Of a stretch of DNA of 64,000 nt, positions 1 through 56,874 are shown piece after piece (the first letter of the stretch is position 1; each line of letters opens with the position of its first letter). The stretch lies in the IMG/VR virus record IMGVR_UViG_3300012274_000057, positions 62,001 to 126,000 of that record, one strand, 5' to 3'. Below the pieces are notes generated by a model. That model did not search any database, was not told the DNA's origin, and saw only the letters and a program-made list of their open reading frames with translations. Both the position numbers and the translations under genes were made by a program. The stretch comes from an uncultured virus (IMG/VR IMGVR_UViG_3300012274_000057). Taxonomy: Duplodnaviria; Heunggongvirae; Uroviricota; Caudoviricetes.

Positions 1-71
1 TAATTAAATAATAATTAATAGACTATGTAACAGTATAATAATTTTAAATTTGTTAGGAGTTGTAAATAAAA

Positions 72-596
72 ATGATTTTAGGTGGAAAAGAAATAATTAA
101 AAGAGTAGAAAAGGGAGATATCTATATAGATAACTTTGATCCCGAGAAAGTAAATCCAAATAGCTATAATCTTACTTTAAATAATAAACTTCTAGTTTAT
201 ACTGGAGATGTCTTAGATATGAAATCTCCCAATAAATACAGAACAATAGAGATTCCAGAAGAGGGGTTAGTGCTTCAACCAGGAACATTATATTTGGCTA
301 GAACTAACGAAAGAACTATTACTGAAAAACTAGTACCAATGTTGGAAGGCAGATCTTCTATAGGAAGATTAGGAATGTCCATTCATGTAACAGCTGGATT
401 TGGCGATGTAGGATTTGATGGGTTTTGGACTTTAGAAATCTATTGTGTACAACCCTTAAAAATATATCCTAATGTAGAAATATGTCAAATATACTATCAT
501 ACAATTGATGGTGAATATGATAAATATAGAAGTGGTAAATATCAATTCAATGTAGATATTCAACCAAGTCTTTTATATAAAGATTTTCAAAAATAA
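72..596 (+). CDS. dcd: dCTP deaminase
   Basis: NPNSYNLTL, EGRSSIGRLG, AGFGDVGFDG and ICQI motifs; AGGAG RBS. Confidence 0.93.
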   Translation: MILGGKEIIKRVEKGDIYIDNFDPEKVNPNSYNLTLNNKLLVYTGDVLDMKSPNKYRTIEIPEEGLVLQPGTLYLARTNERTITEKLVPMLEGRSSIGRLGMSIHVTAGFGDVGFDGFWTLEIYCVQPLKIYPNVEICQIYYHTIDGEYDKYRSGKYQFNVDIQPSLLYKDFQK

Positions 597-38342: not shown

Positions 38343-38382
38343 AAAAAAAAAATAAAGAAGATGCATTATGCATCTTCTTTTT
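38343..38382. terminator. bidirectional intrinsic terminator
   Basis: aaagaagatgca-tta-tgcatcttcttt with A/T tracts on both sides. Confidence 0.85.
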
Positions 38383-40132: not shown

Positions 40133-40228
40133 AAAAAGGTAGTACAACTATGTGTACTACCTTTTTGGCAACTTGCGATTTAAATTTAATATAAATGTAG
40201 ACGGGGTAATATTATTTATTATATTGTT
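40133..40228 (-). ncRNA. candidate ~85-nt small RNA (late promoter + non-coding body + terminator)
   Basis: AACA-ATATAA-TA at 40228-40217; 14-bp hairpin 40133-40166 with U-tract; no ORF. Confidence 0.4.
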
Positions 40229-43555: not shown

Positions 43556-44182
43556 CTATATAAATTCCATATTTGATTTATTAATTGTGCATAATTCATG
43601 TTCATAATATTCCGCAATTAAATCTTCTATGGTCATTGGTATTATTTTAACTTTAAATTCGTCTGAGATTATTTCTAATATATCATCAGTTATTTCAATT
43701 TTAGAATTGCAAAATGATATATTAATATTTTTTTGTGTAGAAGATTTATTCTTGCTGGATAACGATATATTATTATTTATCTTATCAATACATATCGATG
43801 AAGATATAACTAGTTTATAACTAGTTGAATGATTTGTTATGCATCGTATAAATAAACATTTACCATCTAAATGTTGCTTATGGTTACTTATCTTAAGATA
43901 ATTATTTTCTTCCTCATCATAAATACAAGAATCTATGTCTACATTATTAGAAACTCTATTTAAAGAATTTATTATTGTATTCATATATGCATTTATCATT
44001 ATTTCATCACCTTTGATTATATCAAAATTATGAAGTCTTATAAATTTAATTATAGCATTTATGTTATTTTCGGTTTGTTGATGTTCGAATCTCCAATCTA
44101 TTTTTTCTAAATCCTCTATCAATTTGTTTAAGTCATAATTCTTTCCTTTATAATTTATTATTTGTAATTTTGGTTTGTCCAT
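43556..44182 (-). CDS. hypothetical early protein
   Basis: AAGGAGAGATTAATTATG start. Confidence 0.75.
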   Translation of the reverse strand: MDKPKLQIINYKGKNYDLNKLIEDLEKIDWRFEHQQTENNINAIIKFIRLHNFDIIKGDEIMINAYMNTIINSLNRVSNNVDIDSCIYDEEENNYLKISNHKQHLDGKCLFIRCITNHSTSYKLVISSSICIDKINNNISLSSKNKSSTQKNINISFCNSKIEITDDILEIISDEFKVKIIPMTIEDLIAEYYEHELCTINKSNMEFI

Positions 44183-44202: not shown

Positions 44203-44700
44203 TTAAAAATAAAATTTACCTTTATCTCTCATTAAATTTAATTTATTTATATATTTAACACTATGACTATATTGTCTTTGCAGTAGTTTTAATTCGCCTT
44301 TAATTTGATTATAATAAACCCTCATATCTTTTCTACTACCTTTAGGTAATGAATTTAATATTTTATATATTTCAAATTCATTTATCATTTTTTCTTTTAT
44401 TAATATAGCCTTTATTTTTGCTTGTTCTTTCTGAATTAAAACTGTATAAGTTAAGAAATATAAAATATTTGCTATTTCGTCTTTTACAAATATTTTATAT
44501 TTAATCATAAAAATTTGTTTCTTTCTATTTTTACACCATACAATAATATAATTTCCTTTTTCATTATACTCATAATGAATAGCATTTTTTGAATGATGTT
44601 TATCATTCAAATCTATCCAGAATGTTTTTACGATATGTGGTTTATAATTTTGTAAAGTATCAAATAATACTTTAAAATCAGATATGTTTCCATCAACCAT
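44203..44700 (-). CDS. hypothetical basic protein
   Basis: AAGGAGA RBS. Confidence 0.7.
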   Translation of the reverse strand: MVDGNISDFKVLFDTLQNYKPHIVKTFWIDLNDKHHSKNAIHYEYNEKGNYIIVWCKNRKKQIFMIKYKIFVKDEIANILYFLTYTVLIQKEQAKIKAILIKEKMINEFEIYKILNSLPKGSRKDMRVYYNQIKGELKLLQRQYSHSVKYINKLNLMRDKGKFYF

Positions 44701-44775
44701 AATTAATTTCTCCTTTTTTATTTTTAAAAATATATTAGAAGATTAGAAATAAATCTAATCTTCTTTTTAAATAAA

Positions 44776-44912
44776 TTAAAATCTCACGAAGTGAGATTTA
44801 TCAGCCTCCCCTTCATGTCTTCTAAAACATGAATAATTTACATTTATATTGTATTTATAATAATGAATTATAAATTAATTCAATGTTTTATACTTTGTAA
44901 AAATGTACAAGC
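44776..44912 (-). repeat. left copy of ~135-bp inverted repeat
   Basis: Reverse complement aligns with 46492-46625. Confidence 0.9.
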
Positions 44913-44916
44913 TCCC

Positions 44917-45708
44917 TTATTTATAAAAGTCCATAGAGAAGACATAGCAATCTTCTCTATCTACAAGAACATAATCGTTCATAGATATCAGTACTCTATT
45001 TTCGCCAAATAATAACTTACGTATTATATTATTTAATATTTGGCTATTAGTATTAAATTCACCATGAAGTTTTAAATACTCAAATGTATTTGGTTCTATA
45101 TTGCTTTTTATTATTATATTAAACGATTCTTTCATAGCAGTTATAGCATCATCATCTGTAAATAATAAATCAGTAACCTTTCTAATATAAAAGTTTTCAA
45201 TAGTTTCTTCCTCATATATAATTGTATCTATATCTAATTTAGTCATAGGTTTTTTTATGTATAACCTATCTGAATCCATTAATGTCGTTAAAAGATTAGT
45301 ATTATCATCCATATATTTTAATGCTAAATTATATGCTATATTTTTTATATCTGCATTATTTTTTTGTCTATCATATTTATAATTTAAAAAGTATAATCCA
45401 GATATAATCTCGTTTATTATAATTGATTTAATTAAAATCATTTTTTCATATTCGCTATGAATATTATGTGCATGATCAATAATATTATTTATATCTATCA
45501 CCATAGTATTTACAAATATACATGATAAATTTTTACACATATCATAATCTTTTTCATTAAATAATAGCTGTATTGGAATTGCTATATTTAATTCGTCCTT
45601 CACTGTTCTAAATACCTTTTGTGCTAATATTTTTAAATTGAACATAATATCCTCGTTCAATTTAAGTCTAGTTGCCTTTTCATGCTTAAGTTTAATAATG
45701 TTATTCAT
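44917..45708 (-). CDS. hypothetical early protein, possibly a degenerate zincin-like paralog of 45863-46483
   Basis: GAGGGGG RBS; early-motif variant 45750-45759; IIINEIIS in place of HExxH. Confidence 0.7.
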   Translation of the reverse strand: MNNIIKLKHEKATRLKLNEDIMFNLKILAQKVFRTVKDELNIAIPIQLLFNEKDYDMCKNLSCIFVNTMVIDINNIIDHAHNIHSEYEKMILIKSIIINEIISGLYFLNYKYDRQKNNADIKNIAYNLALKYMDDNTNLLTTLMDSDRLYIKKPMTKLDIDTIIYEEETIENFYIRKVTDLLFTDDDAITAMKESFNIIIKSNIEPNTFEYLKLHGEFNTNSQILNNIIRKLLFGENRVLISMNDYVLVDREDCYVFSMDFYK

Positions 45709-45862: not shown

Positions 45863-46483
45863 ATGAATAAATTAATAGTAGATCCAAATAACTATAGTAT
45901 AGTATCAATTTCAAATGAGACATCCTTTGAAGAAACAGAGACTGATAAACTATGTAGACATATACTAGGTTTATTTAGTGATCTTAAAGATTTAGAGATA
46001 GAAATTGATGTGGATAAATATAACAATTTTGAAGCATGTTTTCGTACAGAAAAAATAAACAATAAAAAAAGACAATATAAATATATTATAAATCTTAGAC
46101 CATTTCAAGACTGTTTTAAAAAGGGAAGCATTTGTAGAAATAGTAGAGAAATTATAGAAGGTTTGGAGATAGATGAACTTTTAAGAATAAATAGTATTGA
46201 TGAAAAATATAAATTTAAAGTTTACTATTTATTTTATATATTACATGAAATTGGACATATTAAGCATTTTAATATAAATGAACGATATATCAATAAATTA
46301 AAATTGGCAGATGTGTCTCTAGATTGTTCATTGCGTCAAACTTATTATAATGCTAATAAGAAACATTCTTATACGATATATCAATATGGATTATTCGAAT
46401 CCCAAGCAAATTTATTTGCATTTAAATATTTCACATATATTTGGAATAATGTATTAAAAAATACAAATTTTCTTAATATGTAA
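45863..46483 (+). CDS. HExxH zinc metallopeptidase-like protein (ImmA/IrrE-like)
   Basis: ILHEIGH and downstream FESQANLFA; early motif 45812-45821. Confidence 0.7.
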   Translation: MNKLIVDPNNYSIVSISNETSFEETETDKLCRHILGLFSDLKDLEIEIDVDKYNNFEACFRTEKINNKKRQYKYIINLRPFQDCFKKGSICRNSREIIEGLEIDELLRINSIDEKYKFKVYYLFYILHEIGHIKHFNINERYINKLKLADVSLDCSLRQTYYNANKKHSYTIYQYGLFESQANLFAFKYFTYIWNNVLKNTNFLNM

Positions 46484-46491
46484 AAATATAG

Positions 46492-46625
46492 GCTTGTACA
46501 TTTTTACAAAGTACAAAACATTTAAATATTTATATTTAAATTATATAAATTTAATATATAAAAATATTCATGTTTCTACAATACATGATGAGAGGATTGT
46601 CAAATCTCACTTCGTGAGATTTTAA
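46492..46625 (+). repeat. right copy of ~135-bp inverted repeat
   Basis: gcttgtacatttttacaaagta.aaaacatt ... tattcatgttt...acatga ... aaatctcacttcgtgagattttaa. Confidence 0.9.
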
Positions 46626-46639
46626 AGGAGGAATAAAAA

Positions 46640-46816
46640 ATGAAAGATTCTAAAATAAATCTAAATAATAAGTGGTTTACTATAGAACGAGATCATTACA
46701 AATGTAAATTATGTAAATTCTATTATAAAATATACAATGAAACTGAACCCAGTAAATGTCCTAATTGTAATCATAGTACTAAAGATGAACAAAAGAATAT
46801 CAATAAAAATAAATAA
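46640..46816 (+). CDS. 58-aa zinc-ribbon/rubredoxin-like protein, not in ORF track
   Basis: Hand translation ...YKCKLCKFYYKIYNETEPSKCPNCN...; AAGGAGG RBS; terminator 46825-46857. Confidence 0.8.
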   Translation: MKDSKINLNNKWFTIERDHYKCKLCKFYYKIYNETEPSKCPNCNHSTKDEQKNINKNK

Positions 46817-46907: not shown

Positions 46908-47720
46908 ATGAGAGATCCACAAAATATTCAACAAGTCGAATATAATGGAAATAAAATAAGTATAGTTAAAATGGACGATATACCTCCATTTGATATTCCA
47001 GACTATGACCTATTAGATAGTAAAGAACTTAGTAAATATTTTGATGATATTGAAAGAAAAATAATAAGAAATTCATTTGAATATAGACAAATGGTGAATT
47101 TCTTAAGAGAAAATTTAGATATGAATAAATGTAGTTTCTATCAGAATGTAAATAATATAGATACATTTAAAATAAAAATACATTTACATCATGAACCATT
47201 TACATTATATGATTTAGTTACTATAGTGTATAATAAGAGATTATTTTTCCATGAATGTTTAGAAGCAGAATTAGTAGCTAAAGAAGTTATGTACCTACAT
47301 TACAAATTAATGGTAGGTCTTATACCTTTAGCAGAAACTGTACATGAATTAGTACACAATAGCTATTTATTTGTTCCTATGGATAAAGTATTTGGAAATG
47401 TACAAGAATTTATAAACATGTATGAAGATTTTATGTCTCCAGAACAATTAGATTTACTAGAAAGAAATCGACAATATACTAAAACTTACTGTGAAGAATT
47501 ATCAAATAACCATATCCTAAATAAAAACTATATATATTTAGATTTAACAGGTGCATATGATATTCCTACATTAGAAGAAGTAGTAGATTCTATGAATGCG
47601 AAGATAAAGGAGATAAAAGGGGATACCTCATCTATATATGTAGAAGAGAAACCAAAAAAACAATTACAGCAGATGGTATCTTTTGGACAAGCACCTGATA
47701 GTGTTTTACCTGATAAATAA
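46908..47720 (+). CDS. HNH-like protein, paralog of 57383-58036
   Basis: C..IHLHH...TLYD...LIPL...HELVHN pattern; late motif 46876-46887. Confidence 0.55.
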   Translation: MRDPQNIQQVEYNGNKISIVKMDDIPPFDIPDYDLLDSKELSKYFDDIERKIIRNSFEYRQMVNFLRENLDMNKCSFYQNVNNIDTFKIKIHLHHEPFTLYDLVTIVYNKRLFFHECLEAELVAKEVMYLHYKLMVGLIPLAETVHELVHNSYLFVPMDKVFGNVQEFINMYEDFMSPEQLDLLERNRQYTKTYCEELSNNHILNKNYIYLDLTGAYDIPTLEEVVDSMNAKIKEIKGDTSSIYVEEKPKKQLQQMVSFGQAPDSVLPDK

Positions 47721-47858
47721 AATCTTAAACTATTTATTATTATGTACCTATATATTATTTATATTTATTATTTTTTATATATTTTTTTACATGAATATAG
47801 ATGACTAAAATAGATATAATAAACATTATATTAATTAATCTATAAAGGAGGAATAAAA

Positions 47859-48356
47859 ATGGCAGATTTATTTACTAAAAGTATAATTGATATTTTAAAT
47901 GAAGCATCAGATTGTGAAGCTTGTTCTAATGAAGAATTAGAACTTGATGGGGAATTAGAAGATGAATACGATGATGTAGAAGAATTAGAAGACGATATAG
48001 AATATACTGAAGAAATGGTTAATGTAATATTACAAGAATCAAATTCACAAACTAAATATTTGATAGAATATGATAATCTTTGCAAATTGATGGAGTCTAA
48101 ACGCATGGATATAAAGGAGGCTATGATATCAGTTTGTGAGCATAACCAAATTTCATTCAGTCACGCATACCTTGTATTAGAATCCGATGAAACTTTCGCA
48201 GAAGCATTAAATGAAGCAAAAGCATCAATAAAATATGCAAATAACCCAATAGATAAAACAAAAAATAAAAAGAAAGTAGGAAAGGTTTATGATACTTTCA
48301 AGGATATAAAGAATAAAGGAATAAAAGTATTAAAGAAAAAATCTAAGAAAAAATAA
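47859..48356 (+). CDS. acidic-N/basic-C protein, possibly head-associated
   Basis: Late motif 47822-47833; LNE|A sites; AAGGAGG RBS. Confidence 0.7.
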   Translation: MADLFTKSIIDILNEASDCEACSNEELELDGELEDEYDDVEELEDDIEYTEEMVNVILQESNSQTKYLIEYDNLCKLMESKRMDIKEAMISVCEHNQISFSHAYLVLESDETFAEALNEAKASIKYANNPIDKTKNKKKVGKVYDTFKDIKNKGIKVLKKKSKKK

Positions 48357-48362
48357 TTATAT

Positions 48363-48467
48363 AACATATATTTAAAAAATATAATATTTTTTTATTTTCC
48401 TTTCTAAGTTATATTTAAACCAGATATATAAATGAATATAGAAAACTATATTCATTTATATTATTTT
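48363..48467 (+). ncRNA. candidate small RNA unit 1 (promoter included)
   Basis: AACA-TATATT-TA; TTTTCCTTTCT anti-SD-like core; 16-bp hairpin 48426-48461. Confidence 0.5.
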
Positions 48468-48478
48468 AATATCAATAT

Positions 48479-48572
48479 AACAATAAAGTGAATTAGAAAT
48501 TATTCATTTATTCTATTTCATAATTAATCTCACTTCGGTAAAGTAGTATATCGTTATGATATACTACTTTTT
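48479..48572 (+). ncRNA. candidate small RNA unit 2 (promoter included)
   Basis: AACA-ATAAAG-TG; TTTCATAATTAATCTC anti-start core; 13-bp hairpin 48540-48570 ending in a T run. Confidence 0.55.
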
Positions 48573-48593
48573 ATTATTAAATAATAATACTAT

Positions 48594-48696
48594 AACATAT
48601 AATTGAATAGCAAGTTTCATACTTAACCTCACCCTAAAGTTTTTATGATTTGAAATCAAATATAAAAGATAGAGATTAGTTTCTCTATCTTTTATA
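48594..48696 (+). ncRNA. candidate small RNA unit 3 (promoter included)
   Basis: AACA-TATAAT-TG; TTTCATACTTAACCTCACCCT anti-start/anti-SD core; 15-bp hairpin 48661-48696. Confidence 0.55.
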
Positions 48697-48780
48697 CTGT
48701 CTAAATATATACATAATTATATATTATAATAATGAAATAAACAATAAATTAATATTAAAAAATTTAAAGGAGGAATAAGT

Positions 48781-49377
48781 ATGAAGTTTTATTTCGATAC
48801 AGAATTTACACAATTAAGAAAAGAAACAACATTAATCTCTGTAGGTATATTATCAGAAGATTATTCATGTTCTTTTTATGCAGAATTAACAGATTTTAAT
48901 CAATCTTTATGTGATGATTGGATAAACAAAAACGTTATAGATAATTGTATCTATATATCTAGAAAAGGAAAACAACAATATATATTTAATAGAACTATAG
49001 AAAGCTCTGAAACAAATAATATATCAATATGTGGAAATAGAGAAGAGGTTTCGAAAGAATTAGTAAGATGGCTTTCGAGATTTAGTGAAATTCAATTTGT
49101 AGCAGATGTATGTAATTATGATTTCGTATTATTAATAGATCTAATCACAAATGGTGGTACCGCATTCGACTTACCAGTGAAAATATCACCATATTGTCAT
49201 GATATAAATCAAGATATCGCTGATTTTCTATCTATATCTGATAGTGCAGCATTTGATGTAAATAGAGAAGAATTGGCTTTGAAAATAAATCCATATTTAA
49301 AATTAAATGAAAAGTCTAAACATAATGCATTATATGATGCAAGAATGTGTGCTATTGTTTATAAATCAATAAAATAA
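48781..49377 (+). CDS. DEDDh 3'-5' exo(ribo)nuclease (Rv2179c-like)
   Basis: FDTEF, YD and HNALYDAR motifs; early motif 48718-48727. Confidence 0.85.
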   Translation: MKFYFDTEFTQLRKETTLISVGILSEDYSCSFYAELTDFNQSLCDDWINKNVIDNCIYISRKGKQQYIFNRTIESSETNNISICGNREEVSKELVRWLSRFSEIQFVADVCNYDFVLLIDLITNGGTAFDLPVKISPYCHDINQDIADFLSISDSAAFDVNREELALKINPYLKLNEKSKHNALYDARMCAIVYKSIK

Positions 49378-49397
49378 TATATAGGAAGTGAATCTAA

Positions 49398-49727
49398 ATG
49401 GGAATGTATTTTTATAAAGGTGTACCTTTATTTAATTATCATACAAGATTTAAAGACACTGACATTACTGTATATAATGGATATATGGGTCATAACATAG
49501 AATGGTTAATAAATGATTTAGAACAACAATTTACAAAATATAATAATAAAAATACAATATTAATTAATCCAGATAATGGAGAGATATGTGTATATGATAA
49601 AAATGAAAAACAAGAATTAAAATTTCAAATAGAAGATAGCAAAGATTATCAAAATTTGAAACATATTATTATAAATAATATGAATACAGTATGTATAGAT
49701 CATACTGAAAATTATCAGCTATGTTAA
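49398..49727 (+). CDS. hypothetical protein
   Basis: ORF in operon, AGGAAG RBS. Confidence 0.7.
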   Translation: MGMYFYKGVPLFNYHTRFKDTDITVYNGYMGHNIEWLINDLEQQFTKYNNKNTILINPDNGEICVYDKNEKQELKFQIEDSKDYQNLKHIIINNMNTVCIDHTENYQLC

Positions 49728-49780
49728 ATAAAGAACTTAAAGTTCTTTAATATAAAAAATGAAAATAGGGGGAGAAGGAA

Positions 49781-50092
49781 ATGAAAATATTTAATTGTCA
49801 AATCGTAAAAGGAGAAATAGTAGATATGTATGGAAGCGGTGTTGGTGAAGCACCCCAATATTTACTATTAGTGGAAGATAATGAGCATGAAGGATTAGAC
49901 ATAGAACCTTCAAAAATAATCTATTTAACAGAAGATTTAGCAGATGATGTAAAAGATGTACATTATCAAATAATCGATGCTATGATAGATATGCTATCAG
50001 AAACAGAAGTAAATAATATAAGAATTAATAACTCTGAGTCAGCAATTGTTATAGGAGGTGCTGAAATTACGAGGAGGAAAAGTATTCTGTAA
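49781..50092 (+). CDS. hypothetical acidic protein
   Basis: GGGGGAG RBS. Confidence 0.7.
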   Translation: MKIFNCQIVKGEIVDMYGSGVGEAPQYLLLVEDNEHEGLDIEPSKIIYLTEDLADDVKDVHYQIIDAMIDMLSETEVNNIRINNSESAIVIGGAEITRRKSIL

Positions 50093-50102
50093 GGAGAAAA
50101 AT

Positions 50103-50798
50103 ATGAATTATGAAGACATATTTAATAAAAATACATTAAATATATTTACTGATGCTTCAATCAGTAAAATAGGAAATGAAACAGTTGGTTGTAGTGGTTG
50201 TATAGCCACTACAACTGATAATTATGGAAAATCGATAATAGTAGATGAATTTTATTTTATAAATAGAGATACTACTAATAATGATTCAGAATTAAAAGCT
50301 ATACATGCTGGTATATATAAAGCTATACAGTATAGAAATAATTATAAACAAATTAATTTATTCTCTGATTCTCTTGTTTCAGTTAAGGGATTAAAAGAAT
50401 GGATATTTAATTGGATTAATAATATGAAACTAGGAGTATTATACGGAAGTTCTGGAGAAGTGAAAAATCAAGAATTAATAAAATCTATTATATCGGATAT
50501 AATAACTTCTCAATTACAAATTAAAATTTATCACCAAAAAGGTCATATAAAAATCAATGATTATGATGATTTATTAAAAGCTCAAAGAATATTTTTAAGG
50601 GAGAACAATATTACTGCTCCTTTAGAATTAATTAAAGATTTATGCTATTACAATGATATTGTAGATAATACAAGTAGACAACGATTATTAATATATGTAA
50701 GTGATAAAACCCAATCACTTCAGTTACAAAAAAATCCTATAAGTCATCTTATAGATACAACAAGAATAAGGAATGAATATAGAATATTGGTTAAGTAA
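50103..50798 (+). CDS. rnhA: ribonuclease HI-like protein
   Basis: IFTDAS, TTNNDSELKAI, FSDS, HQKGH, YNDIVD; start moved to ATG 50103 behind AAGGAG. Confidence 0.88.
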   Translation: MNYEDIFNKNTLNIFTDASISKIGNETVGCSGCIATTTDNYGKSIIVDEFYFINRDTTNNDSELKAIHAGIYKAIQYRNNYKQINLFSDSLVSVKGLKEWIFNWINNMKLGVLYGSSGEVKNQELIKSIISDIITSQLQIKIYHQKGHIKINDYDDLLKAQRIFLRENNITAPLELIKDLCYYNDIVDNTSRQRLLIYVSDKTQSLQLQKNPISHLIDTTRIRNEYRILVK

Positions 50799-50812
50799 AG
50801 GAGATTTTTATT

Positions 50813-51223
50813 ATGAAATCAGAAGACTTATATAAAATGGATAAAGCCTATGAATTATTAGAAGAATGTGAACCAACATATAAGAGTTTAGATATACTTA
50901 TATGCTTAAACAAACCATTATTTATTATGTATTTTTCTAGTATTGATATCTTATTAAATAATGATGAAAAATATAATCGGTTTAATACTGCTATTGATAA
51001 TTTAACTAAACCAATGTATGATATTTTATCAACAGTAGAGCATAGTATTGATAAAGAAAAAATAATGAATATGAAAGAACTTTTAAAGATATGTATAATG
51101 CATGAAGTATTATATTTAGTATCATCTGAAGAAGTATTCGATAAGCCATCTTCTATGAATTGTTTAGATAATTTAGTAAATAGTATTTTTACTGGGTTTA
51201 GTAAAATAAAAGGTTATTTTTAG
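50813..51223 (+). CDS. hypothetical protein
   Basis: AAGGAG RBS; hairpin 51253-51280 downstream. Confidence 0.7.
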   Translation: MKSEDLYKMDKAYELLEECEPTYKSLDILICLNKPLFIMYFSSIDILLNNDEKYNRFNTAIDNLTKPMYDILSTVEHSIDKEKIMNMKELLKICIMHEVLYLVSSEEVFDKPSSMNCLDNLVNSIFTGFSKIKGYF

Positions 51224-51313
51224 CTTATATATATTTAAGAGAAATGTAAAATATAGGTTACTACAAAAGTAGTAACCTATTATTAATATTAAAAATAAAG
51301 GGAGAGATTAATT

Positions 51314-52135
51314 ATGAATAAACAACAATTAAAGCCGATGGTAAAATTTGAAGATAATTTACAGTATAAGAATACAACTTATACAGCAGAAACAATGTAT
51401 AGTAAAATAGCACAAATTTATACTAATGAGAAATTATTAGAAAGTGGTTATCCAGAAAATGAATTAATGTTAAACCACAGGAGAATGTGTTTAGAACAAA
51501 CTTTTAGAAATAGAGTTCAATTTTTATTAATGCAAGTTATTGAGAGCTTTAATAATAAGGTATATGAAGTGAACTCTTTATTAGAAAAAACAAAAAGTGG
51601 ATTCACAATTTATAGGTCACATACAGGAACATTAAATGGATATATAGAGTCTAAATTTGATTATATATATGATATATATAGTTATATGCATATATTAAAT
51701 AATCCAATAACAATTAGTGACATATCATTAACTTTATCTACACTGATGTATAATGCAATAAATATATCAGTGCAAATACCTGAAGAGATGAGAGATATCT
51801 ATTATAATGAGATGTATGAGGTTAAGTTTGATAAATATATGCATAATGTAGATCCAAATATATTATTATCATTTGAGCAATATAGGACAAACTTAAGTAA
51901 ATACTTTACAATGCTAATAATGAAAATGTTCGAGCAATTATGTGGAGAAGTAAAAACAATTTATTTAGATGCAGGATATCCTAGATATGCGGAACCTTGT
52001 AAGTTCTGTTCAGAAGAAGAACTATCTAGGGCAATACAATTACATCAACCAGTAAAAACAATTGAAGCAACAGAAGGAAAAAAACGTAGATATAGAAAAC
52101 TAGATATTCCATTATTTGAAGAATTGGAAAAATAA
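51314..52135 (+). CDS. hypothetical protein
   Basis: GGGAGAGATTAATTATG start. Confidence 0.75.
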   Translation: MNKQQLKPMVKFEDNLQYKNTTYTAETMYSKIAQIYTNEKLLESGYPENELMLNHRRMCLEQTFRNRVQFLLMQVIESFNNKVYEVNSLLEKTKSGFTIYRSHTGTLNGYIESKFDYIYDIYSYMHILNNPITISDISLTLSTLMYNAINISVQIPEEMRDIYYNEMYEVKFDKYMHNVDPNILLSFEQYRTNLSKYFTMLIMKMFEQLCGEVKTIYLDAGYPRYAEPCKFCSEEELSRAIQLHQPVKTIEATEGKKRRYRKLDIPLFEELEK

Positions 52136-52168
52136 TTATCTGAATTTATTAAGGAGAATTAATTTACT

Positions 52169-52678
52169 ATGAATACACAAGTTTTATTTTCTAGTAATGA
52201 TCAAACTTGGGAAACACCTTTAGAGGTGTTTTCCAAATTAAATAATGAGTTTAATTTCACATTAGATGTATGCTGCACCATGTATACTACTAAATGTAAA
52301 AAATTTTTTACCCCAGAACAAAATGGATTAATTCAAGATTGGAGTAATAATGTATGTTGGATGAATCCACCTTACGGAACGGAGATACCTATTTGGATAG
52401 AAAAAGCTTATAATGAAAGTTTAAAAGGAGCTATCGTAGTTTGCTTAATTCCAGCTAGAACAGATACAAAGTATTGGCATAATTTTTGTATGAAATCAGC
52501 TGAAATTAGATTTATAAAAGGTAGATTAAAATTTGGTAATTCAAAAAATTCTGCACCATTTCCAAGTGCAATTGTGATTTTTAATAATAAAATAAATGAA
52601 TTAACTGTATCTAGTTATACAGTATATGGTAGATTAATTAATTTTAAGCTTCCAAAAATGGTAAGATACTTATATTAA
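52169..52678 (+). CDS. phage DNA N6-adenine methyltransferase
   Basis: WETP, FTLDVC, WMNPPY, LIPARTDT.YWH, IRFIKGRLKF motifs. Confidence 0.9.
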   Translation: MNTQVLFSSNDQTWETPLEVFSKLNNEFNFTLDVCCTMYTTKCKKFFTPEQNGLIQDWSNNVCWMNPPYGTEIPIWIEKAYNESLKGAIVVCLIPARTDTKYWHNFCMKSAEIRFIKGRLKFGNSKNSAPFPSAIVIFNNKINELTVSSYTVYGRLINFKLPKMVRYLY

Positions 52679-52747
52679 TTTATATTATAATCATATATTA
52701 TATATGTAGGAAATAAATATAAATTTAATATAAATGGAGGGGATTAA

Positions 52748-53512
52748 ATGTTTTATCAACAATCTCCTATAGCTATGAATATGGGTGGTAATATGAATCA
52801 AGGATTTATACCACCCAATCCAATTAGTAATGTAGCAATAGGTAGTAACGGGTATAATGGAATAGGAAATATGGGTTCTTATTATACAGGAACTTATAAT
52901 AATTATTATAATCCATATATGGCAATGAAACAGCAAGAAGCAATGGAAGCTGTATATATGGAAGAACAAAGACAACAAGTTGATATTATGAAAACAATAT
53001 CAAAAAATGTAAATAAATCTTATGGGACAGAAGTTGATGATATATTTCTAAAACGCTATGATCCTGTCGATATAATTCAACAGAATAGAGATCCTGAAAT
53101 AGATATAAATATAAGATTAGCCAATGCACGTGCTGAAGCACAGTATGGAAGGAATCCAGAAGTAGAAGGGTACATTTACGCAATTAATACGATGTATGAT
53201 AAATCTAAAGAAATATATCCAGATAGTATGGGTATATATGAATTTAATAAGATATCTTCTGAAATAAATTTACAATATTTAGAAGAAGAATATAGAGAGA
53301 AACAAAGAAATGTTGGGACACTATATAATAGATCTCAATATAATCAGCTTATATCAGAACATAGCAAAGCAAATAATTCATTTAGTAATGTTTTTGGAAA
53401 TACAAAAAACATTAATTCCATAGATGATTTAGAAGTTACATTACCAAGTCATTTAAGTAATGAACTTGCAGCTCGAAGAGAAATGTTTATGAAAAGTATA
53501 ATGGGTAAATAA
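52748..53512 (+). CDS. hypothetical protein with low-complexity N/G/Y/Q-rich N-terminus
   Basis: GGAGGGG RBS; early-motif variant 52692-52701. Confidence 0.75.
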   Translation: MFYQQSPIAMNMGGNMNQGFIPPNPISNVAIGSNGYNGIGNMGSYYTGTYNNYYNPYMAMKQQEAMEAVYMEEQRQQVDIMKTISKNVNKSYGTEVDDIFLKRYDPVDIIQQNRDPEIDINIRLANARAEAQYGRNPEVEGYIYAINTMYDKSKEIYPDSMGIYEFNKISSEINLQYLEEEYREKQRNVGTLYNRSQYNQLISEHSKANNSFSNVFGNTKNINSIDDLEVTLPSHLSNELAARREMFMKSIMGK

Positions 53513-53525
53513 GGGGGAATATAAT

Positions 53526-54863
53526 ATGGCAAGAGTAGATTTATTAAGTGTATTATATTCTAAAGAAAAATCACCATTAGAATTTAAATTCGATTCAATG
53601 TGGATGCCATCAATGTATAATTATCTTACGCAACAGGATATACAAGCATTGTATAATATAGCATCCTCTATTAGATATAGTTCTAAGATAGAATTAAAAT
53701 ATAAACTCATAGATGATATTATGACAGTAAGAGGATTTAAGAAATTTGCCTCTGGAACTAATAGGGTAGTTTATAGTTATTTAGAAGACCAATCATTTTT
53801 AGTAAAAATAGCAATAGATAGAGTTGGTCTTGGAGATAATCCAGCAGAATATAAAAATCAATTTTTATTAAAACCTTTTGTATCTAAAATGTTTGAATGT
53901 AGTCCATGTGGGACTGTAGCATTTGTAGAAAGATTAGAGCCCATAACATCTAGACAAGAATTTTTATCTATAGGCGAAGATATATTTAATTTATTAAATG
54001 AATTTATTATAGGTAAATATGTATTAGAAGATATAGGAAGTAAATATTTTATGAACTATGGATTGCGTAAAGGATTTGGTGTATGCCTCTTAGACTATCC
54101 TTATGTGTATGAATTGGATGGAAATAAACTGTATTGTAATAAGCAAGAACTTGAAACAAAGAATCTTTGTGGAGGAGAAATAGATTATGATGCAGGATTC
54201 AACAATTTAATATGTAGTAAGTGTGGCAAAAGATTCAAAGCCAAAGATTTACAACAGTCTGTTCAAAATAAATTAATTTTATTAAAAAATGAAGGAGAGA
54301 TTGATATGAAAATTAAAGTTAGTTATCGTGGAGAAGTAATAAGAGAATTTAATTCATCTGATGAAAGTGATGTTATTGTTAGAAAGCAAAAACAGCAATC
54401 ACAACCAACAATGAATGTAAAAGTAAATGGAGTTCCGATAGGGGGTCCAAAAACTCCGATTAACAATGTAAGAGAGTCTGCTTTTATCAATAAAAATAGA
54501 CACGATATAAAGGGAGATAAAAAAAGATATGCAGAAATGGGAAACGCTAAATCAGTTCAAAAAGATAATACACAAGAAATAAAAAATCAAGTATCCCAGG
54601 CAGATTCTAAACCTGAAACTATAGAAAAAACAGATAATATATATACTATTGCGGTCAAATCTGAATCTCTTAAAGTTCCTACAATAGATGCAGCAACTTT
54701 AAATTCTATAGGATTATCAGATAAAGATTTTGAAGAAGAGGACTCATCGAATAAAGAAGAAGATAAAGACTTAGCAGCTAAATATTACGATGAGTATAAA
54801 GATTTTGAAGAAGAGGATAATTTTCAAAAAATTAAAAAGAATAAAATTATAGATAGATATTAA
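53526..54863 (+). CDS. protein-kinase-like domain + Zn ribbon + low-complexity tail
   Basis: ASGTNRVVY (Gly loop), LVKIA, AEY, EDIG...NYG, LLDY; C..CGG and CSKCG cysteines. Confidence 0.6.
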   Translation: MARVDLLSVLYSKEKSPLEFKFDSMWMPSMYNYLTQQDIQALYNIASSIRYSSKIELKYKLIDDIMTVRGFKKFASGTNRVVYSYLEDQSFLVKIAIDRVGLGDNPAEYKNQFLLKPFVSKMFECSPCGTVAFVERLEPITSRQEFLSIGEDIFNLLNEFIIGKYVLEDIGSKYFMNYGLRKGFGVCLLDYPYVYELDGNKLYCNKQELETKNLCGGEIDYDAGFNNLICSKCGKRFKAKDLQQSVQNKLILLKNEGEIDMKIKVSYRGEVIREFNSSDESDVIVRKQKQQSQPTMNVKVNGVPIGGPKTPINNVRESAFINKNRHDIKGDKKRYAEMGNAKSVQKDNTQEIKNQVSQADSKPETIEKTDNIYTIAVKSESLKVPTIDAATLNSIGLSDKDFEEEDSSNKEEDKDLAAKYYDEYKDFEEEDNFQKIKKNKIIDRY

Positions 54864-54876
54864 TGGGGGGATCATT

Positions 54877-55539
54877 ATGTTATTCAATGGATCTATCTTT
54901 GTAACGACAGATTTAAATGTTGTTAGAAATAATTTTACAACAAGTAAAGTCGTTGTAATTGGAGATAATCAGCCAAGCAACCAAGAATTAGTAACATCGG
55001 TTGGTGGAGTATTAGCAAGTGTATTGCTACCTCCATATCAATCTATGGAAGCATATTTAGATAATAGAAAAGAAGATTTTATAAATCTATACTATGCATA
55101 CTTATTTAGTCGAGAAACATTGGCATTATTAGCAGCTCTGGTGAGAGCTATAATGAATGGTACAAACATTCTTATCTATATTAATGCGGATGAATATAAT
55201 ATGTATTTTGAAGCATTGTATAATTTTATAGCAATAAATTTTGGAATATTTATTGGAACTGGAACAAACCAATTTGGATTTTCAAACAATCCAATTCACA
55301 TTAAATTTATTTGTGATACTTTATATTTAAATGAATTTTTAAGTATACCAGAATTATTTGCATTATATCCTGCAGATGCAGATTTTCTTCAAGAAGTTGT
55401 TGTTAAATTAATAAATGAGTTAAATCCATATGTTGCAGATACTTCTTTTGAAGGTTATTGTAATTATTTTAGAAACTATAGAAATCAAATGTTAGCGAAT
55501 AATGGTTCGTTCTTAAAACCATTGGTGCATAAATGTTAG
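54877..55539 (+). CDS. hypothetical protein
   Basis: GGGGGG RBS; operon. Confidence 0.75.
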   Translation: MLFNGSIFVTTDLNVVRNNFTTSKVVVIGDNQPSNQELVTSVGGVLASVLLPPYQSMEAYLDNRKEDFINLYYAYLFSRETLALLAALVRAIMNGTNILIYINADEYNMYFEALYNFIAINFGIFIGTGTNQFGFSNNPIHIKFICDTLYLNEFLSIPELFALYPADADFLQEVVVKLINELNPYVADTSFEGYCNYFRNYRNQMLANNGSFLKPLVHKC

Positions 55540-56000
55540 TATTTGGTGACTATACATGTTTGAAGCCAGTAATGAAGAATTTCTTTATATTTAATCTGGC
55601 TTCTTCATTAGAAGGTTTCGAAAGGGTAGATATAATACCAAGATTTCAAATGGAATATTCAAATAGAGATTTTGATGTGCTATATGCAAAATATATAATG
55701 GAAACAGATTCAGTGTTTTATGAATTTATGAAAATAATAATTTCATTATATAATGGATTTGATGTATTTATATTAACTAATAGAAGCGGATTTTATGAGG
55801 ATATTATAGAATCCCTTCAAAAGTTAATTCAGCAACGATATGGTATAATATCTAATATTATAAATGAACCAGATGATTGGAATTATGTCCAAGAATCTTG
55901 TTTTAATATTAATGGTTTATATAATTTAGATATAGACAAAGAAAGATATGCAGTGATGTTTACAAATTTAAATTTAGATACTATACTAAAGTCATTGTAA
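55533..56000 (+). CDS. hypothetical protein
   Basis: Overlapping start; terminator ~56007-56039. Confidence 0.75.
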   Translation: MLVFGDYTCLKPVMKNFFIFNLASSLEGFERVDIIPRFQMEYSNRDFDVLYAKYIMETDSVFYEFMKIIISLYNGFDVFILTNRSGFYEDIIESLQKLIQQRYGIISNIINEPDDWNYVQESCFNINGLYNLDIDKERYAVMFTNLNLDTILKSL

Positions 56001-56052
56001 AATTAATAAAGTTAGAGATTATCTCTAACTTTATTTTTTCGGAGGTTTTTAA

Positions 56053-56874
56053 ATGAGTAATTTATTATGGAATAAAGTAAATTATACTGCAGATATAGAA
56101 TATATAATATCTAGTTATATTAGAGAATATGATATAAAAAAGGCAAATATAAATATTTTATATAATAAAGGAGTATTGACTAAGAATCAATATGAATATT
56201 ATCATAGTTTAGAAAAGAAAAAAAGAGAAGTTAGTATAGGTTGTTTATTAAGAGATAATCCTCAATATAATAAAGTATTAATTGATGGTATAAAAGAATA
56301 TAAACAGAAATTCTTTGAAGCCAATAATATTAAATTTGAGGAAGTATTATCAATAAAAAATGATGCTGTATTTATAATAAATAAAATCCCTAATATAACT
56401 GTATTTGATAATAATGTAGAATTTGTAAATAAAAATATATTTACGTCTTATTATAAATTAGGTCCAAATAAATCTGATATTGAAGCTTATTATTATTATG
56501 ATATGGTTAATAATACTGAAAAAATAGATATTAAAGGTATCAAAGATGAAAAAATATATTTACATGAAGATTACTTTTTAGAATTTTTAAAAGTATGTTT
56601 TTGTTCTGCTCAATCTGAAGGCATAAAACCTACTATAGATTTAATATCATCATTTTATAATAGATATATTAATTTGCAATTAGATATAGGATATTATAGA
56701 GAATTTAGATCAGATTGTTGTTACACATTAAAAGGATTAAGCCAATATAGTATATTTAAATCTTTTAATTTGGAAGAACATAATAAACAATATGTAAATA
56801 TTATAGTTAATTTAAATATAATTAGACAACTTCATAAATACTTTTCTCAAATTTATTTTTCTAATAGTAGATAA
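56053..56874 (+). CDS. stand-alone DNA polymerase palm-like protein (family B-like motifs A and C)
   Basis: IREYDIKKANINIL (motif A-like), LSIKNDAVF (motif C-like), IDIKGI. Confidence 0.5.
   Translation: MSNLLWNKVNYTADIEYIISSYIREYDIKKANINILYNKGVLTKNQYEYYHSLEKKKREVSIGCLLRDNPQYNKVLIDGIKEYKQKFFEANNIKFEEVLSIKNDAVFIINKIPNITVFDNNVEFVNKNIFTSYYKLGPNKSDIEAYYYYDMVNNTEKIDIKGIKDEKIYLHEDYFLEFLKVCFCSAQSEGIKPTIDLISSFYNRYINLQLDIGYYREFRSDCCYTLKGLSQYSIFKSFNLEEHNKQYVNIIVNLNIIRQLHKYFSQIYFSNSR

Follow-up and report, generated by a model that had tools for sequence, protein, structure and literature searches.

The 64,000-nt stretch of DNA analyzed here (the window; all coordinates are window positions unless marked as genome positions) comes from a phage with a 230-kb genome of 26.6% GC that carries its own RNA polymerase genes, with RNAP beta-like genes at 33835-38340 and from 63000. 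Judged by these genes and by the occurrence of the early and late consensus motifs of Bacillus phage AR9, transcription in this phage is AR9-like. Between a gene for a 165-aa protein and a gene for a DnaQ-like / RNase AS-like 3'-5' exonuclease lies a 424-bp gap (48357-48780) without an annotated gene, and it houses three units of about 115 bp (Table 1). Every unit opens with AACA-N6-T(A/G), has a perfect 13-16-bp hairpin 61-67 nt further on, and follows its predecessor at a spacing of 116 or 115 bp. The sequence thus reads as the first-pass annotation had described it, with three AACA starts, regular spacing, a separate hairpin for each unit and a gap poor in ORFs. The minus-strand ATGs do open MK-stop in unit 2 and an 18-codon ORF in unit 3, as had also been noted. 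No plus-strand ORF with a ribosome-binding site was found within the gap, and the plus-strand mini-ORFs inside H1 and H2 (19 and 16 codons) were rejected because of their start-site scores of 0.5 and 3.2. By eye, and without a statistic, the second minus-strand frame of unit 2 resembles the peptide of unit 3.

Table 1. Features of the gap and its flanking genes, in window coordinates (strand "." where the feature is symmetrical).
Feature	Position	Strand	Remarks
Gene for 165-aa protein	47859..48356	+	upstream of array; final codons and stop similar to the start of unit 3
Unit 1 late-promoter-type motif, AACA-N6-TA	48363..48374	+	AACA-TATATT-TA; predicted start A 48374; PWM 11.5, 24th percentile of 76 gene-proximal sites
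Unit 1 pyrimidine core, TTTTCCTTTCT	48395..48405	+	mirror of SD-like AGAAAGGAAAA; start-codon mirror absent
Hairpin H1	48426..48461	.	16-bp perfect stem, loop of 4 (AAAA; TTTT in the 99% relative)
Unit 2 minus strand	48461..48521	-	ATG-AAA-TAG at 48513-48521; other frame, FLIHFIVILILK-stop, at 48461-48499
Unit 2 motif, AACA-N6-TG	48479..48490	+	AACA-ATAAAG-TG; predicted start G 48490; PWM 10.1, 12th percentile
Unit 2 core, TTTCATAATTAATCTCACTTC	48516..48536	+	antisense of start-site box GAGATTAATTATGAAA(T)
Hairpin H2	48540..48570	.	13-bp perfect stem, loop of 5; T-rich plus-strand tail
18-codon ORF, MKLAIQLYVIVLLFNNKK-stop	48564..48620	-	behind the start-site mirror of unit 3; stop inside H2
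Unit 3 motif, AACA-N6-TG	48594..48605	+	AACA-TATAAT-TG; predicted start G 48605; PWM 9.0, 8th percentile
Unit 3 core, TTTCATACTTAACCTCACCCT	48615..48635	+	antisense of AGGGTGAGGTTAAGTATGAAA
Hairpin H3	48661..48696	.	15-bp perfect stem, loop of 6; minus-strand tail better
Exonuclease early-type promoter, TTATATATTAT-N6-G	48713-48734	+	early consensus as given in PMC5312081
Exonuclease late-type promoter	AACA 48740, start 48751	+	score 11.7
Exonuclease start site	48751..48785	+	predicted partner of unit 3 core (duplex, match and fold predictions)
DnaQ-like / RNase AS-like 3'-5' exonuclease gene	48781..49377	+	downstream of array

The units had been described as conserved in architecture and not in sequence. 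They have indeed diverged, but pairs of units align above shuffles (300 shuffles; p = 0.010 for units 1 and 2, 0.017 for units 2 and 3, and 0.10 for units 1 and 3), so on sequence the description holds only in part. In the three-unit alignment, 41 of 130 columns are invariant, and TATAACA together with the T at +10 is constant in all copies. The alignments indicate that the units are weakly homologous tandem duplicates.

AACA-N6-T(A/G) is the late consensus of AR9, its last A/G being the start, according to PMC5312081 and PMC5449584. In all three units AACA occupies -11 to -8, T is found at -1, and +1 is A or G, which is the arrangement of AR9-type late promoters. Across this genome, T occupies +10 in 75% of 112 AACA sites upstream of genes against 31% elsewhere, and A occupies +11 in 77% against 34%; of the motif sites that reach at least 12 bits by PWM, 64 of 75 are intergenic, while the intergenic share of the genome is 8.3%. 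This enrichment upstream of genes and the identity with the AR9 consensus bear out the first-pass annotation in treating the late motif as a genuine promoter-type signal of the phage. The coding background has 294 consensus matches over 2 x 211 kb, so that a stretch of 424 nt would be expected to have about 0.3 on each strand; the gap has four, all of them on the plus strand. The gene-proximal consensus sites have TA in 75 of 76 cases and TG in one, compared with 199 TA and 95 TG in the coding background, and the TG of units 2 and 3, rare at gene-proximal sites, therefore weakens the late-promoter call. TG at -1/+1 is present in several AR9 promoters, including the strongest (Table S3 of PMC5312081). 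A whole-genome scan for promoters scoring at least 8 with a hairpin within 110 nt returned 19 pairs, four rows of which are one AT-repeat site repeated. This is the genome-wide search for such units that the first-pass annotation had proposed, and it left only six distinct wholly non-coding units, three of which are those described here. From 48300 to 56599, no minus-strand late-type site scores above 2, and no phage-type minus-strand promoter, early or late, was found within 8 kb upstream of the 18-codon ORF. The absence of a competing minus-strand promoter counts for plus-strand RNAs directed against start sites.

The three hairpins were considered as candidate terminators. Perfect hairpins are mostly intergenic in this genome (94/123) and trail most genes. 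The stems of H1 to H3 are AT-rich, with 2-4 G-C pairs each, and within 8 nt on each side the tails have 5 T after and 4 A before the stem in H1, 6 T and 1 A in H2, and 3 T and 6 A in H3; a terminator scan calls H2 alone. The mixed tail polarity, with H3 favoring the minus strand, argues against plus-strand RNAs; as a guide to the strand, tail polarity is weak genome-wide (31 vs 16 in ++ contexts). The cores of the units are unpaired in predicted RNA folds, which counts for RNAs that act on start sites.

Each unit had been said to mirror a translation-initiation region. This stands for units 2 and 3, whose cores are true start-site mirrors by PWM and match length, but not for unit 1, which has an SD mirror but no start-codon mirror and no target. 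The unit 2 core is exactly antisense, over 13-17 nt, to a box, GAGATTAATTATG, that is common to eight unrelated genes, among them those at 51314 and 43556, with perfect complementarity of 17, 16, 15 and 13 nt to the start sites of these genes. In a scan for orphan anti-start-site sequences, with filters to remove promoter palindromes and the strands opposite real start sites, unit 2 ranked first genome-wide among antisense matches to annotated start sites. No paralogy was found among the eight box genes, and no family matches were found for them except for one with an RHS repeat. All differences between unit 2 and the box lie in the SD part, and none lie in the 17-nt spacer/start part (p about 0.02 by our own count). 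Read on the minus strand as a start site, unit 2 has a PWM score of 11.5, below the 25th percentile of genes (12.4).

The start of the neighboring exonuclease gene is the predicted pairing site for the unit 3 core. Positions 48616-48650 are 71% complementary to 48751-48785, the duplex (-21.1 kcal/mol) ranks fourth among 241 start sites, and the perfect match of 10 nt (TAAGTATGAA) is tied for the longest. In the predicted fold of 48605-48830, the segment 48616-48635 pairs with the SD/start of the exonuclease gene in both the MFE and the centroid structure, and the folding energy is -44.6 kcal/mol compared with -24.9 +/- 3.4 for shuffles (z = -5.9). This pairing with the adjacent gene counts for anti-start-site RNAs. 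Duplex energies were calculated for each unit RNA against the 241 start sites, with 40 dinucleotide shuffles as controls. The comparison of pairing with shuffled sequence, proposed as a check in the first-pass annotation, went against its claim as far as the best targets are concerned, because the fractions of shuffles that did at least as well were 0.075, 0.175 and 0.6; the mean duplex energy over all start sites was the sole pairing measure better than shuffles. No overall preference for early- or late-gene start sites was observed (Mann-Whitney p = 0.97, 0.14 and 0.31).

Searches for relatives returned one array-bearing record, which is 99% identical. Neither blastn of 47800-49400 against phages nor tblastn of the 165-aa neighbor gave a match. 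The exonuclease gene led to four IMG/VR loci, the 99% record and three at 36-46% without the gap, and a metagenome scan with the same gene led to three loci at 26-49% in which the array is absent. The 165-aa gene retrieved the same 99% record only, and a 270-aa gene retrieved two identical loci at 50% with other neighbors. The pattern TTTCATAMTTAAYCTCAC occurs at 24 IMG/VR loci, among them the 99% relative. None of the remaining 23 has the unit layout. The mirror there belongs to a generic start site or to coding sequence read in frame, and 10 of these 23 loci have ORFs of at least 83 codons or ORFs open to the end of the locus. Homology to a late leader element (46517-46640 and its copies) was rejected since the alignment was not above shuffles (p = 0.03-0.88). 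Only an 11-mer, ATCTCACTTCG, common to the units and the late leader element stands out. CRISPR-repeat mimics, retron RNA and attenuator peptides were likewise set aside, as the 13-16-bp stems are AT-rich, no reverse transcriptase lies nearby, and there is no plus-strand leader ORF with an SD. A look-up of sequencing runs for 47000-50500 listed none, RNA included. A search for tRNA and tmRNA found none, and Rfam (c4, RF01695, and all other models) gave no match at gathering score in the whole window; the best E-value in the gap, 0.15, belongs to an unrelated microRNA model and is at chance level.

The reading that we consider best, to which we give a probability of roughly 0.37, is that the units yield late plus-strand RNAs against start sites. 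Transcription, the RNA ends, pairing in vivo and the effect on translation are predictions made from the sequence. The gap would be a tandem triplication of a cassette in which a late promoter is followed by a pyrimidine-rich segment without structure and then by a hairpin terminator. The non-virion RNA polymerase of the phage would initiate late in infection at the three predicted starts (Table 1) and halt at the three hairpins, giving predicted RNAs of about 95, 89 and 96 nt, whose 5' halves would pair with translation-initiation regions and so block ribosome loading. Unit 2 would aim at the box GAGAUUAAUUAUG(AAA) in at least eight unrelated genes, five of them behind early promoters, and unit 3 at the exonuclease gene next to it, acting in trans or, on a read-through RNA, in cis. 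Unit 1 would offer an anti-Shine-Dalgarno stretch only and may be degenerate. The earlier proposal of a cassette of anti-RBS small RNAs is thus retained in a tentative form: the motif, the hairpins, the mirrors of units 2 and 3 and a comparable layout in AR9 speak for it, and the TG dinucleotides, the pairing energies, the state of unit 1 and the decay-like grading speak against it. This grading, from unit 3 (intact mirror and ORF) through unit 2 (weaker mirror, apparently frameshifted ORF) to unit 1 (no start codon), fits decay as well as design, and decaying copies of a minus-strand mini-gene would be expected to show it.

Duplicated leftover DNA is a serious alternative to anti-start-site RNAs, although we regard it as somewhat unlikely. 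A stretch comprising the 3' end of the upstream gene with its 3'UTR and terminator, fused to an inverted gene-start fragment, would have been duplicated twice and would now be decaying, with any transcripts as functionless by-products. Such an origin is consistent with the weak homology among the units and with their graded intactness (unit 3 > unit 2 > unit 1), and the start of unit 3 (48579-48607) matches the end of the upstream gene, stop codon included (48348-48376), at 83% over 29 nt. TG is typical of non-promoter consensus matches, the best-target energies are no better than those of shuffles, and the array is missing from all relatives below 99% identity. Even the perfect stems could be kept without selection by palindrome turnover, the H1 loop being inverted between the two 99% identical records. 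What decay would not lead one to expect is the invariance of TATAACA (a seven-column run, with a chance probability of about 0.04 by a rough estimate) and of the T at +10, or an unchanged 17-nt box-matching part of unit 2 while the SD part holds all the changes. The pairing of unit 3 with the adjacent exonuclease start and the very strong mapped start of a like layout in AR9 also argue against it.

An improbable reading places the function on the minus strand, where unit 3 would encode an 18-residue hydrophobic peptide whose start is covered by a cis-antisense plus-strand RNA, as in a type I toxin-antitoxin-like system or a regulated small membrane peptide, with units 2 and 1 as decayed copies. 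The start site of unit 3 scores 15.2 on the minus strand, near the gene median of 15.5, and is fifth among 24 orphan sites (ORFs of fewer than 20 codons with scores of at least the 25th percentile of genes). The peptide combines hydrophobic character with a basic tail, unit 2 retains a related frame out of register with its ATG, the sole array substitution in the 99% relative is a conservative V11A, and the H3 tail is better on the minus strand. The same antisense layout is found over real genes at genome position 223229 and, in weaker form, at 38350 and 185824. Ibs/Sib and SymE/SymR come to mind in view of the tandem copies and of a promoter that lies inside the ORF and reads across its start site. 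Set against these points are the lack of a phage-type minus-strand promoter within 8 kb upstream, a sigma-70-like match over H3 of only 9/12 in a region where such matches are fewer than in shuffles (15 vs 21.1), and the poor quality of H2 as a minus-strand terminator (1 A in 8). AT-rich DNA gives frames rich in I/L/F/Y/N/K by default, the chance of an 18-codon open frame is about 0.2 by our estimate, and a peptide of this length is below the reach of family searches. The predicted fold, the weak plus-strand tail of H3 and the position of the exonuclease promoters downstream of H3 would also suit a cis-acting leader or insulator, in which stacked terminators shield the exonuclease gene, the unit 3 segment of read-through RNA masks its SD/start, and only RNAs from its own promoters are translated. 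We consider this a long shot, because it accounts for unit 3 alone, leaves units 1 and 2 without an equivalent cis partner, and has no need of three promoter-like motifs. Least credible is a DNA-level element, that is, a phased array of protein-binding sites or palindromes for replication, packaging or recombination. The regular period (115.5 bp, about 11 helical turns), the perfect palindromes with one loop inverted in the relative, and a turn of the cumulative GC skew near 46 kb would fit such an element; the skew turn matches the switch in gene orientation at 45.7-45.9 kb and not the gap, comparable hairpins trail most genes, and apart from its use in promoters the repeated heptamer shows no enrichment elsewhere (129 copies, 16 of them intergenic).

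If anti-start-site RNAs are indeed made, a wider and doubtful proposal is that a virulent jumbo phage has a set of late riboregulators specific to its polymerase and arranged as a modular array. Each would display the mirror of an initiation region, and one would address a regulon of unrelated, mostly early genes that is defined by the conserved spacer box GAGAUUAAUUAUG in their start sites and not by promoters. This would amount to an RNA-based translational switch from early to late genes, and the same design would explain strong "antisense" late starts in AR9. In AR9-like and phiKZ-like jumbo phages, timing is currently credited to two phage RNA polymerases and their promoters, and for virulent phages there is, to our knowledge, hardly any description of translational control by phage RNAs. 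Should the units make anti-start-site RNAs, the early-to-late switch would also have a post-transcriptional level, the conserved start-site box of unrelated early genes would gain a function, and a reading would be at hand for the second-strongest late start of AR9. If the array is debris, promoter-plus-terminator look-alikes arise readily where nearly every gene has both, and the local TA/TG preference would be a useful filter for promoter-terminator calls.

Among known systems, Ibs/Sib-type loci have a hydrophobic ORF of 18-19 residues whose start is covered by an antisense RNA beginning within the ORF, and they occur as tandem diverged copies. Unit 3 is similar in its small hydrophobic ORF, in the candidate antisense RNA across the start and in having tandem diverged copies. 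It differs in that no promoter for a peptide mRNA was found here and in its setting, a virulent jumbo phage with its own polymerases. Of the features expected of a type I toxin-antitoxin locus, a small hydrophobic ORF with a good start site is present in unit 3 only, and a toxin-mRNA promoter was not found: a minus-strand phage-type site is absent, and the sigma-70-like match is weak.

The c4 RNA arises by processing of an operon transcript in a temperate phage, where it acts in immunity. In PMC12197685, c4 of phages P1/P7 is an antisense RNA that blocks a ribosome-binding site, and late antisense transcripts of AR9 are published (PMC5312081); the statement in the first-pass annotation that no equivalent has been described was therefore too strong. 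Like the proposed units, c4 is a short phage RNA that blocks translation by pairing around a ribosome-binding site, and it lies just upstream of its target in the same orientation, as unit 3 precedes the exonuclease gene. In contrast to what is proposed for the units, it is not known to have a late promoter of its own or to form an array.

The AR9 late start 75478(-) has a step height of 3757, the second-highest in Table S3 of Lavysh et al. 2017 (PMC5312081). This start is followed by UCCUCCU and then by a 15-bp hairpin, and the layout at 115851(+) is similar. Both resemble the units in the AACA-N6-T(A/G) consensus and late timing, and in a short unstructured C/U-rich stretch (UCCUCCU, CCCCUC), a perfect hairpin and the absence of an ORF on that strand; their RNA lengths are predictions. 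The part of PMC5312081 considered here lists them only as antisense starts and does not discuss SD mirrors. They are single and antisense to flanking genes, in contrast to the array described here, and no sequence similarity was found between them and the array units. The exonuclease locus of AR9 was rejected as an analogue of the array because the gene follows the DNA polymerase gene there without a gap. Pseudomonas phage PAK_P3 produces sRNA1 and sRNA2, abundant late intergenic RNAs of about 100 nt for which translational silencing was suggested (PMC4933390). These RNAs were detected by RNA-seq, whereas the units are predictions; their phage and its polymerase are unrelated to those described here, and a start-site mirror is not reported in the available part of that paper. 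The PAK_P3 RNAs are nevertheless like the predicted products of the units in coming from a virulent phage, in lying in neighboring gaps, in being late and in having a length of about 100 nt.

The gap at 48357-48780 holds three promoter-to-hairpin copies of about 115 bp (units 1 to 3), and this three-unit array is a sound, non-random observation. Every element listed in the first-pass annotation is present in the sequence: the AACA of the late-type motif AACA-N6-T(A/G) opens each unit, a perfect hairpin ends it (H1, H2 and H3), a pyrimidine-rich core was found in all three, and the minus-strand ATGs open MK* and an 18-codon ORF. The plus strand of the gap has no ORF with a ribosome-binding site. 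The plus-strand ATG frames inside H1 and H2 were rejected: as start sites they score 0.5 and 3.2, where the median for genes is 15.5.

The gap is flanked on both sides by plus-strand genes in a contig of 230,112 bp with 26.6% G+C (bases 62001-126000 being the window), which belongs to a jumbo phage. The window has genes like that for the RNA polymerase beta subunit at 33835-38340 and from 63000, and virion genes are numerous. Genes were called with a simple greedy ORF caller (at least 50 aa), which gave 241 genes and 91.7% coding DNA and missed small genes. The first gene past the gap encodes a DnaQ-like/RNase AS-like exonuclease, whose distant relatives include those of AR9 and PBS1 at 36% identity. 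Elsewhere in the window, a 3193-codon ORF has a G+C content of 0.32-0.33, clearly higher than the rest (0.21-0.28). A late-promoter-plus-leader element of about 130 nt is repeated in the genome and contains two hairpins, one of which (ATCTCAC-TTCG-GTGAGAT) is directly 5' of the Shine-Dalgarno (SD) sequence. Two copies form an inverted pair flanking the divergent genes 44917-45708 and 45863-46483, and one copy spans the contig ends, which shows circular permutation or terminal joining of the contig. An 11-mer of this element, ATCTCACTTCG, is also present in unit 2 (three window matches against 0.37 expected).

The annotation had called the units late-promoted, which stands for the motif as a class. 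At AACA sites in non-coding DNA 15-110 nt 5' of a same-strand gene (n=112), T occurs at +10 in 75% and A at +11 in 77%, compared with 31% and 34% at other AACA sites (n=2464). A weight matrix trained on 76 gene-upstream sites, gap excluded, placed 64 of 75 sites of at least 12 bits in intergenic DNA, which makes up 8.3% of the genome. The motif is identical to the AR9 late consensus AACA-(6N)-TA/G, which starts at its last base (PMC5312081) and is read in vitro by the AR9 non-virion polymerase (PMC5449584), and as a class it is a promoter-type signal here. A second repeated element, TTATATATTAT-N6-G, is identical to the AR9 early consensus (PMC5312081); 60 sites match a 16-mer of it with up to two mismatches, most of them 19-100 nt 5' of genes. 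Both an early-type and a late-type promoter precede the exonuclease gene. Units 1, 2 and 3 score 11.5, 10.1 and 9.0 bits, at the 24th, 12th and 8th percentiles of gene-proximal sites; 4.8%, 7.8% and 12.6% of in-gene consensus matches score as high. Units 2 and 3 end in TG, which is atypical in this phage: TA ends 75 of 76 gene-proximal sites, against a coding background of 199 TA and 95 TG, whereas in AR9 several late promoters use TG. The two lineages differ in this way in the start base that they prefer. Function is compatible with TG, since AR9 uses it also at its strongest late promoter, but the odds of function are lowered for units 2 and 3 because both carry it.

Perfect hairpins (stem at least 10 bp, loop 3-8) number 123 genome-wide, four of these entries being one AT repeat, and 94 are intergenic, mostly a few bases 3' of where a gene stops (in ++ contexts the median distance from the stop codon is 12 nt). 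As hairpins routinely stand 3' of genes, the promoter-to-hairpin unit is the phage's standard gene cassette, here in a gap without a gene. Over the whole genome the polarity of the tails gives little guidance, the plus tail being ahead 31 to 16 in ++ contexts, and in the gap it is mixed (T vs A: 5 vs 4 for H1, 6 vs 1 for H2, 3 vs 6 for H3).

The cores had been described as reverse complements of translation starts, which holds for units 2 and 3; in unit 1 only an SD-like stretch is mirrored. Read in reverse complement, the cores of units 2 and 3 differ at 3-4 of 21 positions from the commonest start site of the phage, AAGGAGAGATTAATTATGAAA. A start-site matrix from 213 ATG genes gives unit 3 a score of 15.2 (median of the genes, 15.5) and unit 2 one of 11.5 (25th percentile, 12.4). 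Unit 2 is perfectly complementary over 17, 16, 15 and 13 nt to eight genes with the start-site box GAGATTAATTATG, in one of them as a variant. After removal of sites opposite annotated starts and of two opposite unannotated 34- and 45-aa ORFs, it exceeds in length every other orphan antisense match to start sites genome-wide. The eight box genes show no paralogy among them, and apart from an RHS repeat in one, no family could be assigned. Of 213 ATG genes, 10 have the spacer ATTAATT, and its fixed form in non-paralogous genes suggests a site for a common regulator, RNA or protein. An early-type promoter lies within 160 nt of five of the eight and a late-type promoter of none; among all 241 genes, 35 have the early type only and 16 have both.

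Complementarity to targets exceeded that of shuffled sequences in one respect only. Averaged over 241 start sites, the duplex energies of units 1 and 3 beat every one of the 40 shuffles, and those of unit 2 beat 39 of them. The energy of the best target was not better: shuffles equalled or surpassed it in fractions of 0.075, 0.175 and 0.6 for units 1, 2 and 3. Overall, the predicted pairing did not favour early genes above late ones (p 0.97, 0.14 and 0.31), and only the top 15 predicted targets of unit 2 include six early-only genes. For unit 3, the exonuclease gene ranks fourth of 241 by duplex energy, with a 10-nt perfect match spanning the start codon. In a read-through RNA (48605-48830), the unit 3 core is predicted to pair with the SD and start of this gene in both MFE and centroid folds (z -5.9).

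Similar layouts occur elsewhere in this genome and in AR9. Six of the eight antisense late-type sites inside genes (at least 8.8 bits) fall in the first 100 nt, where 1.1 are expected. By the gene map, three of these six probably serve divergent neighbours, and three true antisense sites cross the start site to an upstream hairpin. In two places a strong late-type site (13.0 and 13.1 bits) leads through a C-rich stretch, with no ORF, to a perfect hairpin, and one of these units (genome 186775-186873) is antisense to its flanking genes, as is the AR9 unit at 75478(-). Table S3 of PMC5312081 gives seven antisense late starts in AR9, and the step height there of 75478(-), 3757, is second only to 6091.5. 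This start, between g090 and g091, is followed by UCCUCCU near the 5' end, a 15-bp hairpin and a U-rich tail, with a predicted RNA of about 70 nt; RNA lengths for AR9 starts are all predictions. Its AACAT is the reverse complement of the ATGTT that opens an upstream ORF (21 codons, strong SD) before g091 (AR9 75410-75490, L010:610-690). AR9 115851(+) has CCCCUC and then an 11-bp hairpin; the other five starts are weak (15-47) and lack the layout, with one partial exception. Among long gaps, the 634-bp one between converging genes at genome 48948-49581, 12.4-13.1 kb before the window start, carries on its minus strand several mini-ORFs (10-15 codons) preceded by very strong SDs; one scores 17.5 as a start site, higher than any other orphan genome-wide. 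Those at genome 134171-134705 (535 bp) and 189731-190412 (682 bp) have no convincing ORFs, and the latter has facing late-type sites of 13.0 and 15.1 bits.

Coordinates of features in the window and in the whole record (genome)
Feature	Coordinates	Strand	Remark
Unit AACA, units 1, 2, 3	window 48363, 48479, 48594	+	
H1, H2, H3	window 48426-48461, 48540-48570, 48661-48696		
Exonuclease gene	window 48781-49377	+	
Exonuclease gene promoters	window 48713-48734; 48740-48751	+	early; late
Box genes	window 43556-44182; 51314-52135	-; +	GAGATTAATTATG
Box genes	genome 208825, 171148, 133562, 61124, 56832, 27174 (L043-L048)		GAGATTAATTATG
Candidate cis-antisense late RNA	genome 223229-223320 (L049:430-521)	+	13.1 bits; true antisense site
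Candidate cis-antisense late RNAs	genome 38350, 185824, 196371	-	late-type site in gene's first 100 nt; true antisense at 38350, 185824
ORF-less late units	genome 186775-186873 (L050); window 40133-40228	-; -	C-rich GUCCCCUU; ACCCCGUCU
Late-promoter-plus-leader copies	window 46517-46640; ~44700-44890	+; -	
Late-promoter-plus-leader copy	genome 230065 onward and 1-80		contig end and start
Late-promoter-plus-leader partial copy	genome 209739	-	
3193-codon ORF	window 22927-32508	-	

We tentatively prefer, at a probability of about 0.37, that the array encodes late plus-strand RNAs against start sites, in which unit 2 would act on the box genes and unit 3 on the exonuclease gene, unit 1 being perhaps degenerate. 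That the units are debris of duplication is somewhat unlikely. Their sequences had been called not conserved, which the alignments bear out only in part: against 300 shuffles, p was 0.010 (units 1-2), 0.017 (2-3) and 0.10 (1-3), with reverse-complement controls at 0.66, 0.79 and 0.05. The units have in common TATAACA with flanks and an 18-nt core at 89% identity, units 2 and 3 GAAT(T)AG past the start, and units 1 and 3 the region that leads up to and enters the left arm of the hairpin. The array therefore arose by tandem triplication and has since diverged. There is also a resemblance between the beginning of unit 3 and the final codons of the gene upstream of the gap. The array is in one other IMG/VR record, 99% identical, and the gap is absent from every other relative found. 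The two copies differ by A to G at 48589 and in the H1 loop (48442-48445), AAAA here and TTTT there (L001:2662-2665), a clean inversion of the kind that marks template switching inside a palindrome. Events like this can keep stems perfect without selection on an RNA. An element acting at the DNA level is very improbable.

A minus-strand mini-gene with a cis-antisense RNA is an improbable reading. The peptide predicted from the unit 3 ORF is hydrophobic and its end is basic, and a frame like it, FLIHFIVILILK*, is kept in unit 2 but is not in register with the ATG there. Since the mirror of the start site is also lost by degrees, decaying mini-gene copies would fit as well as design. Minus-strand 48300-56599 has no late-type consensus site scoring above 2 and no good early-type site, so no phage-driven minus-strand RNA is predicted. 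A cis leader or insulator is likewise improbable. No described equivalent of the array had been known to the annotation, which goes too far: it is kin to two known kinds, phage anti-RBS RNAs and the late antisense transcripts of AR9, and is itself a variant not described before.
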